32,451 nt of DNA. It comes from Candidatus Hodarchaeota archaeon (lineage in GTDB: Archaea > Asgardarchaeota > Heimdallarchaeia > Hodarchaeales > Hodarchaeaceae). The notes under the pieces were generated by a model. The model had not been told where the DNA came from. It did no database searches and worked only from the letters and a program-made list of their open reading frames with translations. Made by a program: the position numbers and the translations under genes. The DNA is taken from positions 1 to 32,451 of the forward strand of contig JAHQWW010000029.1 in the NCBI GenBank assembly GCA_029856365.1, in the 5' to 3' direction. Below, piece after piece: positions 17,207 through 25,110 of the stretch; the stretch's first letter is position 1, and every line of letters begins with the position of its first letter.

Positions 17207-19315
17207 ATGCCAGAAAAACAATATCAAGATAAGTTACATCGGTATCTGGGAATAAAATTAACCCAGAAGGAGCTGGAGAAGCATCTCTGGGAAGCTGGAA
17301 ACATTCTACGAGGAAGTGTCGACGCATCAGAATATAAACACTATATCTTTGGTTTACTGTTCTTGAAAAGATTGAATGATGTTTTTGAGGAAGAAACAGA
17401 GAGAGTAGCTAGTGTAATTGAAGATCCAATGGACTATGATGTTTATATTCCACCTGAGGCACGATGGAGCTCACTCAATTCATCTTCTATAATAGAAGCC
17501 TGTAAAGCAATTGAAGAGCATAACCCGTTGTTAGAAGGAATTTTGACTGGAATTGGCTTCAGTATAAATGATCGTCTGACCGAGGAAACTTTGGATCGCT
17601 TAATTAAACATTTTAGCTTATATAGACTTCGAAATAGTGATTTAACTGATCCTGATATATTAGGGAGAGCATATGAATATTTAATTGCACATTTCGCAGA
17701 ATCAGCTGGTAAGAAAGGAGGTGAGTTCTATACTCCGAATATGGCCGCTCGACTGTTGGTAGAATTACTTCAACCAAGAGAAGGTATGCGCATAGCTGAT
17801 CCAACAGTAGGCTCTGGTGGAATGTTGATTCAGTGTGTTGAATATGTGAAGGGGAATGGTGGGAATTGGCGAAGTTTATCCTTATTTGGCCAAGAGAAAA
17901 ACATATACACTTGGGTAATATGCAAAATAAATTTACTACTTCATGGGATTGTAAATTCACTTATTGAAAAAGGGGATATAATACGAAGTCCAAAGCTAAT
18001 GAAAGAGAATAACCTCTTACTCTTTGACATAGTGATTGCTAATCCACCATTTTCTTTATCTAATTGGGGAGTTGAAATAGCTCAAAAAGATCCTTACAAT
18101 CGTTTTCGTTTCGGAACCCCATCAAAAAATTACGGAGATTTTGCTTTCTTACAACATATGTTTGCAACACTTCGTGATGATGGTCGTATGGGAATTATAT
18201 TACCTCATGGAGTTTTATTTAGAGGAGGAGCGGAAAAAAAGATAAGAAAAGCGTTAATTCAGAAAGATTTAATTGAAGCAATTGTGGGTTTACCCCCCAA
18301 TCTTTTTCATGGAACTTCAATTCCAGCAGCAATAATACTGATTAATAAAAGTAAGCGCCCTGACCAAAAAAGAAAAATTTTGTTCATTGATGCCTTTAAT
18401 TATTATAAGGAGGGACGATCTCAAAACTTACTTAGGCAGAATGATATAGAAAAGATTGTTACGACATTTAAAAAATATGAATCGACTAATAAATTCTCTC
18501 AGGTTGTTTCATTAGAAAAAATTCAAGATTTTGACTATAATCTTAACATACCGTTATATGTCGATACTAACATTATGGAGGAATCTAAAGATGTAGTTAA
18601 AGTTCTTTCAAAGATTTCTAAATTAAGAAGATTAGAGAAGGAACAGCGAGACTTTAGTCAAAAGATTAAATTAGATTTGAACAAGTTTAGCAGAGTTCGA
18701 TCTGACAAATGGGATATTATTAACTTAGGGGAGTTTGTTGACTTAGAAACAGGGAAAAGAGCAAAAGGGGGGGCACTAAAAGAAGGAACTGTAGCTAGCA
18801 TCGGAGGAGAGCACATCAATGAATCTGGACACGTAATCTGGGATAATATCAAATTTATACCAGATGAATTATATGACAAGCGTCTAACGCAAGGGAAAGT
18901 TCGAATGAATGATATTTTAATAGTGAAAGATGGAGCAACAACAGGTAAAGTCGCGTTAATAAGAGATTTACCATTTAAGAAAGTAGCAGTTAATGAACAT
19001 GTTTTTATTGTTAGAAGTAAAAATGAAGATATACTAGATAATCATTACTTGTTTTATCTATTATTTTCTTCACATTGTCAGAACCAAATCAAAAAACGAT
19101 TTCATGGGGTGGTGGGAGGAATTAACAGGACTGACTTCAAAACTATCCAAGTCCCACTTCCTCCTATATCGGAACAAAGAGAAATCGTTGAACTTCTTTC
19201 TGTAGTGGATGCTAGAATAACAATAACTCAACAGATCAGTGATGAAATCACTCGATTAAAAAGGGGGCTCGTGCAGCTACTGATGACTGGAAAATTCAGA
19301 AAAAATAGACAATAA
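17207..19315 (+). CDS. hsdM: Type I R-M methyltransferase HsdM fused to a single-TRD HsdS half
   Basis: HsdM N-terminus LWEAGNILRG, GEFYTP, DPTVGSGG, ANPPF and PHGVLFRGG. From about aa 500: W..INLGE, a TRD, and PLPPISEQREIV...LKRGLVQLLMTGK (HsdS conserved helix). Confidence 0.9.
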   Translation: MPEKQYQDKLHRYLGIKLTQKELEKHLWEAGNILRGSVDASEYKHYIFGLLFLKRLNDVFEEETERVASVIEDPMDYDVYIPPEARWSSLNSSSIIEACKAIEEHNPLLEGILTGIGFSINDRLTEETLDRLIKHFSLYRLRNSDLTDPDILGRAYEYLIAHFAESAGKKGGEFYTPNMAARLLVELLQPREGMRIADPTVGSGGMLIQCVEYVKGNGGNWRSLSLFGQEKNIYTWVICKINLLLHGIVNSLIEKGDIIRSPKLMKENNLLLFDIVIANPPFSLSNWGVEIAQKDPYNRFRFGTPSKNYGDFAFLQHMFATLRDDGRMGIILPHGVLFRGGAEKKIRKALIQKDLIEAIVGLPPNLFHGTSIPAAIILINKSKRPDQKRKILFIDAFNYYKEGRSQNLLRQNDIEKIVTTFKKYESTNKFSQVVSLEKIQDFDYNLNIPLYVDTNIMEESKDVVKVLSKISKLRRLEKEQRDFSQKIKLDLNKFSRVRSDKWDIINLGEFVDLETGKRAKGGALKEGTVASIGGEHINESGHVIWDNIKFIPDELYDKRLTQGKVRMNDILIVKDGATTGKVALIRDLPFKKVAVNEHVFIVRSKNEDILDNHYLFYLLFSSHCQNQIKKRFHGVVGGINRTDFKTIQVPLPPISEQREIVELLSVVDARITITQQISDEITRLKRGLVQLLMTGKFRKNRQ

Positions 19316-19453: not shown

Positions 19454-20791
19454 ATGCCCGAATCGAAAAATACTAGTAAAATTCCTGTTTTAATTGCTGG
19501 GATAATTGGTTGGGCCCACGATGGGTTTGCCTTGGTATTAGTAAGTCTACTTGCCACAACAATCAGTGCTGCGTATGGTGTAGATAAAATAGCTATAGGA
19601 TTCGTCTTCTCTGCCCAATATGTTATGACAGTGCCTGGGGCTATGCTCTTTGGTGAACTTGCTGATCGTTTTGGCAGAAAAAACATCCTATTACTTTCTG
19701 TATTATGGGATTCTATATTTACTTCGCTTTCAGCAATTGCCCCAACCTTTGAAATATTTGCTTTACTAAGATTATTATCTGGACTTGGGGTTTCATGGGG
19801 GATTTCCTTTTCTTTGCTATCAGAAACCTTTTCATCAGAAAAACGAGGAGCTGCCGGTGGATTGGTTCATGCGACCTTTGTGGCTGGTTATATTGGGGCA
19901 GTTGTAATCACTCTAATTTTTGGGAATATGGATCCAATTATTTTAGGGCCTCTAGCTCTTGATGGATGGCGAATATGTTTTCTCTCTGCTCTTTTTCCTA
20001 TCCCATTTTTAATTTATTTGGAATTTACTCTAGATGAATCTCAAGTCTGGTCAGATTATAAAAAAGCCACACAACTCGATGAAGAAGTAAAACCAGAGAG
20101 AATCCGTACATTTGACATATTAAGAGGAAAATACCTTAAATATACTCTCTTATTAACATTATTATTCTGGCTTTCTGAATTTGCTTATCATACACTCGCT
20201 GATTGGGCACCTACCTATTTTGAATATTTATTTACTTATGAACTCCAAAAAGCAGATGGGAATGTTGACTCTGCAGGCACACTTTCAATGGTGGTGATGT
20301 TAGGTGTGATGGTTATTGCTGCTTTTGCTTTATTCACTACAGGTTGGTTAAGTGATCGTGTTGGTAGGAGAAATGCATTTATTGGCTGTTCAATTATTGG
20401 TCTTGTTGGAGCATCTTTATTCTTTGTTTCTAATTTTGTATTAATTTTGACTCCTTTAATTATAATTGGATGTCTCATTTTAACAGTTTCATTTGGAATG
20501 CATGGCGTCTTTGGTGTTTGGTCAAGTGAGGTCTTTCCTACAAGAGTTCGTGCGACGGCCACTTCTCTTATTTTCTCAGTCGCTCGTGGATTAGCATGGG
20601 GAGCATTCTTTGTTGGGATTGTTGCAGAAGCCTTAGAACCTTCAGTGACGGTGCTGGAGAATCCTCTTGGACACGCCCAAGCATTAGCTGTTGCAATGCT
20701 CGCTTGTACATTTGCCTATCTTGCTATGTTATTCGTCCCACGACTAATCCCTGAAACGAAAGGGATTGATATCACTACAATCCAAGAATAA
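19454..20791 (+). CDS. MFS transporter (aromatic acid/metabolite:H+ symporter-like)
   Basis: GELADRFGRK and GWLSDRVGRR motif A; SEVFPTRVRAT; C-terminal PETKG; 12 TM segments. Confidence 0.93.
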   Translation: MPESKNTSKIPVLIAGIIGWAHDGFALVLVSLLATTISAAYGVDKIAIGFVFSAQYVMTVPGAMLFGELADRFGRKNILLLSVLWDSIFTSLSAIAPTFEIFALLRLLSGLGVSWGISFSLLSETFSSEKRGAAGGLVHATFVAGYIGAVVITLIFGNMDPIILGPLALDGWRICFLSALFPIPFLIYLEFTLDESQVWSDYKKATQLDEEVKPERIRTFDILRGKYLKYTLLLTLLFWLSEFAYHTLADWAPTYFEYLFTYELQKADGNVDSAGTLSMVVMLGVMVIAAFALFTTGWLSDRVGRRNAFIGCSIIGLVGASLFFVSNFVLILTPLIIIGCLILTVSFGMHGVFGVWSSEVFPTRVRATATSLIFSVARGLAWGAFFVGIVAEALEPSVTVLENPLGHAQALAVAMLACTFAYLAMLFVPRLIPETKGIDITTIQE

Positions 20792-21511: not shown

Positions 21512-22000
21512 TTAAATCTTAATTAATTGGTGATTTGCAATAAAAGAACTTTTATCCTTTATTATCACTTTATTCATTATGTCCCCATTAAGAAGTTTAT
21601 CAATAATTTCTAGTCCTTCTATAATATTACCAAAAACCGTGTGTTTCCCGTCAAGATGAGGTTGGGGAGCTCTAACTAGGAAAAATTGTGACCCGCCTGT
21701 ATCTTTACCCGCATGAGCCATTGAGAGAGCTCCACGGATGTGCTTATGTTCGTTTTTGGTATTCTTTTCAGTTTCACAAGGAATAGAATAACCTGGGCCA
21801 CCTGTACCAGTCCCCTGGGGGCATCCTCCTTGAACTACAAAATCTGGGATACACCTATGAAAAGTCAAACCATCAAAAAATCCTGATTCTGCTAATGATA
21901 CAAAATTCTTAACAGTGTTTGTAACTTCATCAAAGAAATCAATTACTATATCCCCGTATTTAGTTTCAATAATTGCTTTTGTCACAATGTTTATCTCCAT
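21512..22000 (-). CDS. ppiA: Cyclophilin-type peptidyl-prolyl cis-trans isomerase
   Basis: [36 protein letters not shown] and [10 protein letters not shown]. Confidence 0.95.
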
Positions 22001-22117
22001 TAAATATATTATAATTTCAGTCAGTTTAAATTAAGAATTATTTATTTTTTGAAGAAATACACCCAAAAAAGAAAAAAATAGCTAATGATTAAATTGGTTA
22101 AAATAGGTAGTTTACCA

Positions 22118-24385
22118 ATGAATTGGAATATCCGCCTAGCTTATATACAAACGATCTGTTCTTCCATCGGAATGGGTATTATTCAAATCGCTTTCTCGGT
22201 ATTTGTCATCCAAGGGCTAGGACAGACAAATTTTATTCTAGGGACTCTTTTCACTATGCAAGGGCTAGCCTCAACGATATTTGTATTTCCATCGGGGTTT
22301 TTAGCGGATAAATACAGACGAGATACCTTAATCCGAACCGCGGTACTATTTGGAGTCCTCTCTCAACTATCACTAATATTTTCTACATTTTTGGGTGAGA
22401 CTCCTCAGTTAGCTCTGAATATCTTATTTTTAGCTCAAGGTTTAGGGGGTTTAGCTTGGGGTTTATCAGGTCCAGCTGGTCAGGCACTCATCGCTGATAG
22501 TATCGAACCCGGAAATCGTAGTAGAGTCTTTGCAAACATGCATTATGCTAGTTTTTCAGCCTCTGCGGCAGGGCCGTTTGTAGCTGCAGGTATAACTGTC
22601 TTTCTCGGTGACACATGGGCAATCGAAGTTCTTAAATCAGTCATCTTTATTGGTGCACTAAGCTCCTTAGTTGCTTGGTGTGCGTTCATTTTAGTATCAG
22701 ATAATAAAGCTCTTGTTGTAAAAAATGAAAGAAAAGAGGAGAAAGAAAGAGAAATTCCCTCTAGCAAGGAAATTCACAAAGAATCAACACTTTTTAGACG
22801 GGAATTTTCATATGATGTATTTGTACCATCAATCATAGTTATTTCAGGTATCATCATTGGATTTGGTGCAGGCGCAACCGTGGCATTTTTTCCTGTCCTC
22901 TTTGCTGATCCTGTAATTGGTTACGACCTTAAACCTTTCTTTACTTTCGTCATCTTTGGTGCTACAAATGTAGTTTCTGGATTTATGGGGCTTGTTGCTC
23001 AAAGGTTAATTAAGAACTTTGGCAGGATTGGTTCAATGTTTCTTGTCCAAGGGCTTGCAATCGTCTGCTTATTGGGATTAACGGCCAATCTTGCTTTCTA
23101 TATGAATAAAACAGTCTCTTTCAATTTTTCTGTAGTCCTACTTGTGATATTCTTTATCTCTCGTAATGCATTGATGAATGCATCATCTCCTATTAGTAGA
23201 TCAATAGTGATGGATTGTGTTCCTTCATTATCACGAGCAAAATGGAATTCTCTCGAAACATTGGCCTGGGGGATGTTTTGGTCTGTTTCTGCTTCCATTG
23301 GAGGGTCTATTGTTGACTCTTATGGTTTTCTCTATGTTTTCATCTTTACTGCCACTCTTTATACTATTGCGACTCTTATGCTTTTGTTAATAAAAAATCG
23401 TGTTCCCAAGGAATCGATTCTCACCCATACTTACCAATTAGGAAAGTTAAAGACAAGGAATCGTGTTGTTCTTCCCTCTATAAGTGTTGCGGATGACTTA
23501 AGGTTTGGAGATGTTTCGGGACAACTTTCTCCTTCAGCAATCTCTTATTATGCAAAAATAGCTGAGGGAGGAGCTGGTTTGGTTTATTTGGAACCAGCAT
23601 ATATATCGAATTCTGGTAAAAGCCACAATTATCAAGTAGGAATTCATGAGGATTATGTTATACCGCGCATGGTTGATGCAGTAAACCAAATCCATGGGAA
23701 TGGCGCTTTAGCAGGAATAAGATTACGACACGCAGGAGCAGCTACAACTCGTTTTCTTAGCGGAGATCAACCCTTAGCTCCTTCTGCTATCACAATTGCC
23801 GACAAAAACCTATCTCGTCCTATGACTGATGATGAACTCTCACATCTTATTACCTGCTATATTCAAGCTGCTAAACGCGCTGTATCCGCAGGTTTTGATA
23901 TAGTGGAAGTTTCTGCTTGTATCTTTCCTAATAAATTTTCCAATTTACTTGGTCAATTTCTTTCCCCTAATTTCAATCTAAGAATAGATAAATATGGAGG
24001 ATCTTTGAGGAATAGACTCCTCTTTCCTCTAGATGTCGTTAGAGCTATTAAAACTAATATTCCTCCAGAGATCATGTTATCTTTTCATCTAACACTCCCC
24101 TTTCAAGGATTGTCTATTGAAGATTTATTAGAACTCGCAAAATCTTTAGAAATAGTTGGAATTGACTTACTAAGCCTAGGTTATTCAGGTACATGGTCAC
24201 AGAGGGATGGATTTGACGAGTTTTGCGAACAGATAAGAAAAGAGGTCAAATCTCTACCACTAGTTCTGCATGGGGACTTTAATGTAGAAAGTGCAGAAAC
24301 AGCTTTGAAGAGAGGTCAAGCTGATTTTATTGGATTTGAGAAATTAATCCAAGAAGATCGATCTTTTCCGCAAGCACTGCGATAA
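22118..24385 (+). CDS. MFS transporter fused to a degenerate NADH:flavin oxidoreductase (Old Yellow Enzyme) domain
   Basis: 12-TM MFS (SGFLADKYRRD) runs in frame, from about 23411, into LGKLKTRNRVV...AEGGAGLV...HAG...AAKRAVSAGFDIVEV...QFLSPNFNLRIDKYGGSLRNR. Alternative start at 22085. Confidence 0.85.
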   Translation: MNWNIRLAYIQTICSSIGMGIIQIAFSVFVIQGLGQTNFILGTLFTMQGLASTIFVFPSGFLADKYRRDTLIRTAVLFGVLSQLSLIFSTFLGETPQLALNILFLAQGLGGLAWGLSGPAGQALIADSIEPGNRSRVFANMHYASFSASAAGPFVAAGITVFLGDTWAIEVLKSVIFIGALSSLVAWCAFILVSDNKALVVKNERKEEKEREIPSSKEIHKESTLFRREFSYDVFVPSIIVISGIIIGFGAGATVAFFPVLFADPVIGYDLKPFFTFVIFGATNVVSGFMGLVAQRLIKNFGRIGSMFLVQGLAIVCLLGLTANLAFYMNKTVSFNFSVVLLVIFFISRNALMNASSPISRSIVMDCVPSLSRAKWNSLETLAWGMFWSVSASIGGSIVDSYGFLYVFIFTATLYTIATLMLLLIKNRVPKESILTHTYQLGKLKTRNRVVLPSISVADDLRFGDVSGQLSPSAISYYAKIAEGGAGLVYLEPAYISNSGKSHNYQVGIHEDYVIPRMVDAVNQIHGNGALAGIRLRHAGAATTRFLSGDQPLAPSAITIADKNLSRPMTDDELSHLITCYIQAAKRAVSAGFDIVEVSACIFPNKFSNLLGQFLSPNFNLRIDKYGGSLRNRLLFPLDVVRAIKTNIPPEIMLSFHLTLPFQGLSIEDLLELAKSLEIVGIDLLSLGYSGTWSQRDGFDEFCEQIRKEVKSLPLVLHGDFNVESAETALKRGQADFIGFEKLIQEDRSFPQALR

Positions 24386-24481
24386 TTCTTCCGTTAGAAA
24401 AATTATCTGTTTTGTCGTAGGCAGTTTGAGCTGATTTTTTCGAGAATATAACCTTCCCCAAATCTAATAGAGAAAATTAGG

Positions 24482-24548
24482 TGAACCCTATTGTTCGGAA
24501 CGGTTGTCATCACAAATCAGACATATGCCTTTCGAACATCAGGGCTCA
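24482..24548 (-). ncRNA. Candidate K-loop-capped hairpin RNA (L7Ae-binding; H/ACA-like or 3'UTR element)
   Basis: The minus strand forms a long imperfect stem (UGAGCCCUG/UAGGGUUCA, UGUUCG/CGAACA, UGUC/GACA) capped by CUGA-uuug-UGAUGA. Two G-U pairs form only on the minus strand. Confidence 0.45.
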
Positions 24549-24567
24549 TTTAACACATTTCTCCTCC

Positions 24568-25110
24568 TTATTTTAAACCATATGATTCTTTGTGAACAAG
24601 ACTTGTTAGAGGTTTACGTTCAGAGGAACGAGTTTCATCTGCATAACCCACAGCTACCAGTGCTAATACCTGCAAATGTTCTGGTATTTTCAGAAGTTTT
24701 TTGATTTTATGTTCAAAATCTGTACCTATTACTCCCGCCCAACACGTACCTAAATTTAAAGAATGAGCTTGAATCATAAATTGCAGTGTTGCCAGAGCTG
24801 TGTCACTTTGGTGATACTTCGCGTGAATGGTAGAATTAGTCAGCGGAATAAACACAACTGGACTTTCTGCTACGAATTTTCCATAAGGGTGTAGTTTGGC
24901 TAATTTTTTCCTTTTTCCTTCATCAGTTACAATCAAAAATTCCCAAGGCTGCTTATTTGATGCCGATGGTGCCCACTGCGCAGCTTCGAGACATTTTTCA
25001 AGCTTTTCAGATTCTACAGGTGAAGATTTATATTTTCGAATACTTCTTCGCCCTTTTAGGAGTTCTAATGCGTCCAAAATACTATCTTCCTTTGAGTTGT
25101 TTGCTTCCAC
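24568..25110 (-). CDS. Nitroreductase family protein
   Basis: RRSIRKY, APSASNKQPWEF, LGTCW and VGYA motifs. Confidence 0.93.
   Translation of the reverse strand: MEANNSKEDSILDALELLKGRRSIRKYKSSPVESEKLEKCLEAAQWAPSASNKQPWEFLIVTDEGKRKKLAKLHPYGKFVAESPVVFIPLTNSTIHAKYHQSDTALATLQFMIQAHSLNLGTCWAGVIGTDFEHKIKKLLKIPEHLQVLALVAVGYADETRSSERKPLTSLVHKESYGLK

Follow-up and report, generated by a model that had tools for sequence, protein, structure and literature searches.

Can a barrel of the Old Yellow Enzyme (OYE) family that has lost the catalytic residues of that family still be of use to a membrane transporter to which it is joined? The question was raised by a single gene in a 32,451-nt stretch of DNA from Candidatus Hodarchaeota archaeon (assembly GCA_029856365.1, contig JAHQWW010000029.1; the whole stretch is called the window below), which codes for a transporter of the major facilitator superfamily (MFS) fused to an OYE-like triosephosphate isomerase (TIM) barrel. 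OYEs are among the most studied flavoenzymes. A first-pass annotation, made by a model from the letters of the window, had described the barrel as intact in fold but without catalysis, perhaps also without bound flavin mononucleotide (FMN), and had suggested a sensing or gating role. We found a genuine, lineage-specific fusion family whose barrel is under purifying selection. We consider it about even (a probability of roughly 0.5) that the barrel, free of flavin and non-catalytic, acts in the cytoplasm as an accessory module that binds a ligand or a partner and assists or tunes transport.

The gene lies in a single unbroken open reading frame (ORF) of 766 amino acids on the forward strand (22085-24385). 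The earliest ATG of this frame lies at 22085; the start MNWN of the homologues corresponds to the ATG at 22118 and gives a product of 755 amino acids. MFS_1 (PF07690) matched residues 21-338 in Pfam (E 1.6e-33; 116.6 bits against a cut-off of 33.4), and Oxidored_FMN (PF00724) matched residues 451-761 (E 5.9e-36; 124.9 bits against a gathering cut-off of 27). In an AlphaFold2 (AF2) model built from 35 homologues, with a mean predicted local distance difference test (pLDDT) of 76 and a predicted template-modelling score (pTM) of 0.64, twelve transmembrane (TM) helices were placed at 14-203 and 243-436, and the barrel began with an N-terminal beta-hairpin from residue 449 and ran through eight strand/helix units up to the final residue. 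ORF, Pfam matches and model together bore out the first description of one uninterrupted frame joining a 12-TM MFS to an OYE-like barrel. Membership in the OYE / Oxidored_FMN fold family was given by the score above the gathering cut-off and by the (beta/alpha)8 barrel; membership in the MFS was given by the MFS_1 match, by motif A and by the 12 TM helices, arranged as two six-helix bundles around a central loop (204-242). The end of TM12 (RVPKES) passes directly into the N-terminal beta-hairpin of the barrel with no spacer, residues 437-460 at this junction rank among the best-conserved stretches of the homologue alignment, and the protein stops right after beta8/alpha8 with no C-terminal tail.

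In the transporter part, the residues of motif A between TM2 and TM3 (G71, A74, D75, R78, R79 and D80) were invariant in 35 sequences, and Lys and Arg were concentrated in the N-terminus, in loops 2-3, 4-5, 6-7, 8-9 and 10-11, and past TM12. Because these charges cluster in the even-numbered loops and motif A sits in loop 2-3, both termini, and hence the barrel, would be cytoplasmic. The MFS part fell into no subfamily (best NCBIfam MFS scores of 24-30 bits against cut-offs of 131-626), its nearest families being, weakly, the EntS/DHA3-type H+ antiporters. No PDB match was obtained for it by sequence at E <= 0.01, and Foldseek with the full-length model returned OYE chains only among the matches listed, down to rank 50, with no MFS structural neighbour. 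Foldseek matched the YqjM-type OYEs at E 5e-16 and TMt 0.76. The best solved relative of the barrel was TsER/YqjM, with a HMMER match to the Thermus scotoductus ene-reductase TsER (3hf3/5ogt) at E 2e-33. Scores against the NCBIfam equivalogs FadH, BaiCD, mycofactocin-OYE and NamA were 119-126 bits, below the cut-offs of 431-825, and the fusion protein has no iron-sulphur (Fe-S) or FAD/NAD(P) domains.

A word-indexed search over 5.8 billion proteins recovered approximately 40 full-length homologues of 737-780 amino acids, all with PF07690 and PF00724, which were 54-84% identical overall and 45-87% identical across the barrel. They came from mutually independent NCBI, JGI, ENA and Logan assemblies, and the window protein itself was found on two contigs. 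Two homologues lay on the closed chromosomes CP070760.1 and CP070695.1, given as complete 'Heimdallarchaeota' genomes (PMC10833476). Submitter labels were mostly Hodarchaeales, Hodarchaeota and Hodarchaeum mangrovi, with some older labels of Heimdall, Thor and Hermod. Because the same junction is shared by about 40 proteins of one Asgard family, from independent assemblies that include two closed genomes, the fusion is genuine and lineage-specific and not a misassembly, and the concern of the first-pass annotation that it might be unique to this assembly was removed. When 399 genomes of the phylum were scanned in six frames, the full-length fusion was found only in the family-level group of the window genome (the window genome and 13 of 21 others) and in none of approximately 377 other genomes; in other members of the class, the only relatives were MFS-only proteins (35-40% identity) and ordinary OYEs (31-35%). 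In the same class, members of other families (G020:C99:2418-3401, G024:C300, G081:C15, G087:C207 and others) carried frames of 790-830 amino acids, longer than the usual FadH-type architecture of 640 amino acids, whose OYE domain looks canonical and shares 31-34% identity with the barrel.

When the barrel alone was used in an exhaustive profile search against 1.84 billion cluster representatives, the fusion family scored 467 bits and canonical OYEs at most 200 bits, and no free-standing or otherwise fused copy of the dead barrel was present among those representatives. A barrel-only word search likewise placed every protein with both PF00724 and PF07690 in the fused clade, the score falling from 265 to 132 bits at the clade edge. 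The second-best full-length match to the barrel profile (P0075, 569 amino acids, 243 bits) was rejected as a relative, being a tandem of two canonical OYE domains. A frameshifted or chimeric gene call of the fused family is the probable origin of a metagenomic protein of 245 amino acids (P0074), whose last ~180 residues are the C-terminus of a fused-family barrel and whose first ~60 are unrelated.

From the profile search, 136 canonical OYE domains were drawn for comparison with the 35 fused barrels, with YqjM/GkOYE numbering for the canonical residues. The HMMER alignment to TsER paired ELHMAHGYLL with EVSAC-IFPNK-FSNLL, IQLAHAG with IRLRHAG, RVSA with HLTL and LLGR with GFEK, and a second alignment, to the three canonical OYE paralogues of the same genome and near canonical relatives, agreed with this reading of the motifs. 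The changes listed in the first-pass annotation, an altered EIHxA(H/N)GYLLxQFLSP motif with an insertion, Arg for the Gln of QLxHAG and His for the Arg of GxRL, were thus recovered at residues 608-628, R546 and H668 by alignment with YqjM-type OYEs. At the Gln102 site, Q is present in 125 of the 136 canonical OYEs (92%), and Arg546 takes its place in 34 of the 35 fused barrels, none of which has Gln. The His164 site (H in 86% of canonical OYEs) is occupied by Ser or Ala at 610 (S610 here), with His absent in 35/35; the His167 site (H in 85%) corresponds to the variable residue 618, with His absent in 33/35; and the Tyr169 site, equivalent to Tyr196 of OYE1 (Y in 85%), holds D, N, S or G at 620 (N620 here), with Tyr absent in 35/35. 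The Arg215 site (R in 94%) carries Y, H, S, F or C at 668 (H668 here) and never R or K, and the Ser249-like site (S in 79%) carries Asp or Gly at 699. At Gly307-Arg308, canonical OYEs have G in 90% and R in 92%, compared with 54% Gly and 40% Arg in the fused family. The earlier claim that this FMN-phosphate pair is replaced therefore held for the window protein (GFEK) and, as judged by the Arg308 equivalent, for 21 of the 35 including it, but not for the 14 that kept the Arg. The equivalents of Gln102 and Arg215 were both lost in all 35, and all three anchors were lost in the same number of barrels as Arg308 (21/35, the window protein among them). The Met of the N-terminal Pro-Met motif was also lost in the fused family. 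The segment from His to His was exactly 5 residues in 136/136 canonical domains and 8-10 in fused barrels, the beta4 loop being longer by 3-5 residues in the family and by 5 in the window protein.

Around these losses the scaffold was preserved. Approximately 50 positions were still canonical, among them N459-R460, G479, Y489, H549-x-G551, R598, G603-F-D605 and E608, followed by F625, S627, N631/R633/D635/Y637/G638, R644, G675, G692, P725, G730 and D747. With every catalytic residue and most flavin-contact residues gone, the view that the barrel stayed intact while catalysis was lost was confirmed. A further set of residues (Y450, Q480, P504, A505, H521, Y524, L542, G544, R546, P672, F732 and Q745) was invariant only in the fused family, and by the secondary structure of the model most of them map to the C-terminal ends of strands or to the loops behind these, that is, to the former flavin face. 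The three own-genome paralogues used in the second alignment (L004:1501-2532:+, L005:1414-2517:- and L006:1414-2460:-, on contigs C172, C17 and C23) are free-standing canonical OYEs of 343-367 amino acids with Gln/His/His/Tyr intact. They end in a Cys-rich tail, C-[IV]-S-C-N-x-C ... C, with no FAD/NAD(P) domain behind it, and this tail resembles the Fe-S motif found behind the barrel in FadH-type enzymes.

What such losses do to flavin binding is known from GkOYE of Geobacillus kaustophilus (PMC11233575). The single mutants Q102A, R215A and R308A remain yellow, whereas all double mutants and the triple mutant of Q102/R215/R308 are colourless and contain no FMN by liquid chromatography-mass spectrometry (LC-MS) (PMC11233575). 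The apo quadruple mutant crystallises as an unchanged TIM barrel (PDB 8X0J) with a root-mean-square deviation of 0.24 Å to the holo form, so stability without flavin is established for an OYE barrel (PMC11233575). Because all 35 fused barrels are without the Gln102 and Arg215 equivalents and the GkOYE double mutants hold no FMN, canonical FMN binding, and with it ene-reduction, is very unlikely in this family. The suspected loss of FMN binding is strongly suggested by the GkOYE double and triple mutants, and by this analogy the fused barrels would be free of flavin; a redox-sensing role, also part of the first proposal, is unlikely without flavin. The residues required of an ene-reductase, namely the FMN anchors, the His-His or His-Asn pair and the proton-donor Tyr, are not in place, and the combination of lost family catalytic residues with purifying selection is that of a pseudoenzyme domain.

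Selection was measured as the ratio of nonsynonymous to synonymous substitution (dN/dS) by the Nei-Gojobori method for the five most closely related gene pairs, numbered from the lowest to the highest dS of the MFS part (dS 0.12-1.19 over both parts). The values for pairs 1 to 5 were respectively 0.22, 0.17, 0.11, 0.12 and 0.09 in the barrel and 0.08, 0.18, 0.09, 0.10 and 0.11 in the MFS part. With a dN/dS of 0.09-0.22, the barrel is under purifying selection, and the neutral evolution that the first-pass annotation had named as a possible refutation was not seen. The barrel diverges somewhat faster, with a mean pairwise identity of 52% compared with 66% for the MFS part.

In an outgroup-rooted maximum-likelihood tree of the MFS part (53 rows), MFS-only proteins were nested within the fused clade at four places, and the well-supported branches require at least three changes. 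This is most simply explained by a single fusion event at the base of the clade and at least three subsequent losses of the barrel. Three barrel-less forms (L003, L023 and L024) occupy the position of the fused gene beside the cyclophilin gene, and two others (L038 and L041) are convergent tandem paralogues directly beside a fused gene. No barrel remnants were detected by tblastn downstream of the MFS-only genes or in outgroup loci. The tandem MFS-only paralogue (L038:3350-4714:- and L041:1970-3250:+) is ~54% identical to the MFS part, lies between the fused gene and the nitroreductase gene, and belongs to a clade that branches near the base of the fused clade. In one Hodarchaeales genome where the barrel is missing, the next gene (L003:7638-8843:+) codes for an unrelated polytopic membrane protein of 401 amino acids with a C-terminal CxxC...CxxC zinc-ribbon-like motif and no Pfam hit on record.

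The reading to which we give about even odds would work as follows. A functional 12-TM MFS secondary transporter would form the base of the protein, and the cytoplasmic end of TM12 would be welded without a linker to an OYE-fold barrel turned pseudoenzyme, which would neither bind FMN canonically nor reduce enes and yet be retained by selection. The remodelled former active-site face, with the invariant Gln480, Pro504-Ala505, His521, Tyr524 and Arg546, would bind a small molecule or a partner, and this binding may assist or tune transport, for example through substrate capture at the inner mouth or through allosteric modulation. The family would go back to a single fusion with a YqjM/FadH-like OYE at the base of one Hodarchaeales-type Asgard family, and the barrel would be dispensable, several lineages having dropped it and kept the transporter. 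We infer that the barrel binds a ligand; judged by secondary structure, the invariant residues may line one shared pocket. Several points weigh against this reading. Its ligand, its partner and its effect on transport are putative, and the gene context is uninformative on function. On at least three occasions the barrel disappeared and the transporter was retained, and a screen for MFS positions that were invariant in fused forms and altered in at least three of the four barrel-less lineages gave only four conservative changes (I315V, I409V, L431x and R439K) and no candidate interface. Since at least three losses occurred without convergent change in the MFS, any coupling between the MFS and the barrel is not essential. 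The Gly-Arg pair kept in 14/35 may allow a phosphorylated ligand, even flavin, to bind weakly or in a non-canonical way. Finally, the entrance loops 467-479 and 551-572 are variable, with family indels and low pLDDT, which is unusual for a tight, specific pocket.

A stronger version, in which the barrel is a built-in metabolite sensor that allosterically gates the MFS or turns it into a transceptor, and with that the first natural flavin-free pseudoenzyme of the OYE family, is possible but doubtful to us; because the barrel was repeatedly lost without compensation in the MFS, a dispensable add-on fits better than an obligatory gate. We also regard as unlikely a structural role only, with the barrel serving for dimerisation or as a scaffold, as an aid to stability or membrane insertion, or as a docking platform, and having no small-molecule pocket. 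In its favour, YqjM-type OYEs occur as obligate dimers or tetramers, and a dimer is also what the apo GkOYE.8 barrel still forms in crystals (PMC11233575), the loops at the active-site entrance are variable and modelled with low confidence, and loss of the barrel is tolerated with no change in the MFS. However, the family-specific invariants gather at the former flavin face and not on the outer helices, and the protein, which ends right after alpha8, has no counterpart of the C-terminal tail with the inter-subunit Arg finger of YqjM-type enzymes. MFS transporters, moreover, usually work as monomers.

Somewhat more improbable still is a barrel that remains an enzyme acting on the transported substrate, either by non-flavin TIM-barrel chemistry (with Arg546, His521, Tyr524 and Glu608) or with a non-canonical flavin or deazaflavin. 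The strong purifying selection, the new invariant polar residues on the catalytic face, the Gly-Arg phosphate site kept in 14/35 and the ease with which TIM barrels evolve new activities would all suit an enzyme. An engineered FMN-free GkOYE does catalyse a Morita-Baylis-Hillman reaction (PMC11233575), but this promiscuous activity depends on His164/His167, which are absent here. Positions 618, 620, 668, 699, 731 and 752-753 vary by subclade, unlike a fixed catalytic constellation, and repeated loss of the barrel would strand a pathway that needed the reaction. That the fusion is a misassembly, that two genes were read through as one, or that the barrel is what neutral erosion has left of a once active fusion has next to no probability. 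The faster divergence of the barrel and its several losses are what a relic might show; against this stand the same junction in ~40 proteins from independent assemblies and two closed genomes, the lack of stops and frameshifts, the low barrel dN/dS, a junction among the best-conserved segments, and the clean absence of the barrel, without remnants, where it was lost. An artefact or neutral relic is excluded by these data.

Comparison with known proteins sets the accessory-module reading in context. The 'thermophilic-like' OYEs YqjM, TsER, GkOYE and XenA (PDB 1z41, 3hf3, 5ogt and 3gr7) have the TIM-barrel fold in common with the fused barrel, together with the NR at beta1, the HAG at beta3, the GFDxxE at beta4 and the NxRxDxYGG motif; identity is only 26-33%, however, and the fused barrel has a longer beta4 loop and shorter beta5 and beta6 loops. 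These enzymes are soluble and have the C-terminal Arg-finger tail, whereas the fused barrel is tail-less and attached to a membrane transporter. The engineered FMN-free GkOYE.7/GkOYE.8 (Q102A/R215A/R308A with or without Y169F; PDB 8X0J; PMC11233575) are altered at the same three flavin anchors and the same Tyr. They are soluble laboratory constructs that keep His164/His167 and carry Ala for Gln102, whereas the natural family replaced the His pair too and carries Arg in place of Gln102.

Transporters of the MFS with C-terminal accessory domains (CBS, cNMP-binding, PAS, UspA and YAM) are known (PMC10710835, PMC8154325), and the function of such domains is mostly taken to be regulatory. YajR-YAM, LacS-IIA-like proteins and the CBS/cNMP/PAS/UspA fusions, for which PMC10710835 cites the survey of Willson et al. 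2019, resemble the present protein in having a soluble, cytoplasmic C-terminal plug-on of a 12-TM transporter; their accessory domains are small, recognised sensor or regulator folds, whereas here a 320-residue enzyme fold has turned pseudoenzyme. In LplT-Aas, an MFS lysophospholipid transporter with an acyltransferase/acyl-acyl carrier protein (ACP) synthetase (PMC8154325), the MFS is likewise joined to a cytoplasmic enzyme fold; Aas is active and processes the transported lipid, whereas the fused barrel is without the catalytic equipment of the OYE family. The yeast transceptors Rgt2/Snf3 (a transceptor was among the suggestions of the first-pass annotation) combine an MFS with a cytoplasmic C-terminal extension that serves signalling and not catalysis. 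Their tails are unstructured signalling sequences and their MFS no longer transports; the fusion protein, by contrast, has retained its MFS motifs and carries a folded barrel.

The positions of the fusion gene, its altered sites and its immediate neighbours are given in Table 1.

Table 1. Features of the MFS-OYE fusion gene and adjoining genes, in window coordinates.
Feature	Position	Strand	Remarks
Whole MFS-OYE fusion gene	22118..24385	+	Stop at 24383-24385; probable start is the conserved MNWN at 22118
12-TM MFS domain, residues 12-445	22118..23419	+	Pfam, NCBIfam, homologue alignment, AF2 model
Junction, residues 437-458	23393..23458	+	At least 90% conserved at 12 of 22 positions
OYE-fold TIM barrel, residues 446-766	23420..24382	+	Pfam, HMMER alignment, AF2 model, Foldseek
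Arg546 codon, in place of flavin-pyrimidine-binding Gln102	23720..23722	+	HMMER alignment, family comparison
Remodelled beta4 motif EVSACIFPNKFSNLLGQFLSP, residues 608-628	23906..23968	+	Both substrate-binding His and the proton-donor Tyr gone
His668 codon, in place of the Arg215 equivalent	24086..24088	+	Family comparison
Glu752-Lys753, in place of FMN-phosphate Gly307-Arg308	24338..24343	+	HMMER alignment, family comparison
Divergent cyclophilin-type peptidyl-prolyl isomerase (PPIase)	21512..22000	-	Upstream; conserved neighbour in nearly all family loci
Convergent nitroreductase-family gene	24568..25110	-	Conserved neighbour, 70-86% identity; not in an operon with the fusion

The fusion gene is monocistronic, and genes of the nitroreductase family, PALP and BcrAD/BadFG follow downstream on the opposite strand. 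The neighbours recur in almost all family loci, are better conserved than the fusion and form a generally syntenic block. The neighbourhood was rejected as a clue to function, the neighbours being on the other strand, generally syntenic and more conserved than the fusion, and no functional link was drawn from them because the block is generally syntenic. Taken together, the OYE-like domain, the efflux-like MFS and the nitroreductase hint at most at a theme of xenobiotics or electrophiles. A convergent intergenic region of 182 nt (24386-24567) separates the stop of the fusion from that of the nitroreductase gene. Further upstream, a second, unrelated MFS gene (Sugar_tr/MFS_1, 445 amino acids; 19454-20791, +) stands two genes away and is also present in the syntenic locus L002. 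The ORF of 702 amino acids at 17207-19315 (+), with HsdM_N, N6_Mtase and one Methylase_S specificity domain, is a fused methylase/specificity protein of a type I restriction-modification system; a similar gene occurs in the syntenic loci L002 and L041.

The Hodarchaeales-type lineage is currently placed closest to the eukaryotes. No report of an MFS from Hodarchaeales was found in the literature, nor one of a natural OYE family member without flavin or of an OYE pseudoenzyme. Nor did the searches, which did not extend to the MFS-fusion survey of Willson et al. 2019, turn up any account of an OYE barrel fused to a transporter. C-terminal accessory domains of MFS proteins and pseudoenzyme regulators are already known, and an OYE barrel in such a role was not found in the literature. 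We conclude that the fused barrel is real and not an assembly error, and that it is more probably an undescribed accessory module than an enzyme. By itself the finding has no bearing on any major open question. For one Asgard family the fusion is a clean marker of the lineage, and it is tractable as a target because its barrel is expressible as a soluble domain. If the barrel binds a ligand, it would be a plug-on module of a type new to secondary transporters and a natural example of a cofactor-dependent TIM barrel that was repurposed; if it does sense or gate, this would be an innovation confined to the Hodarchaeales-type lineage.

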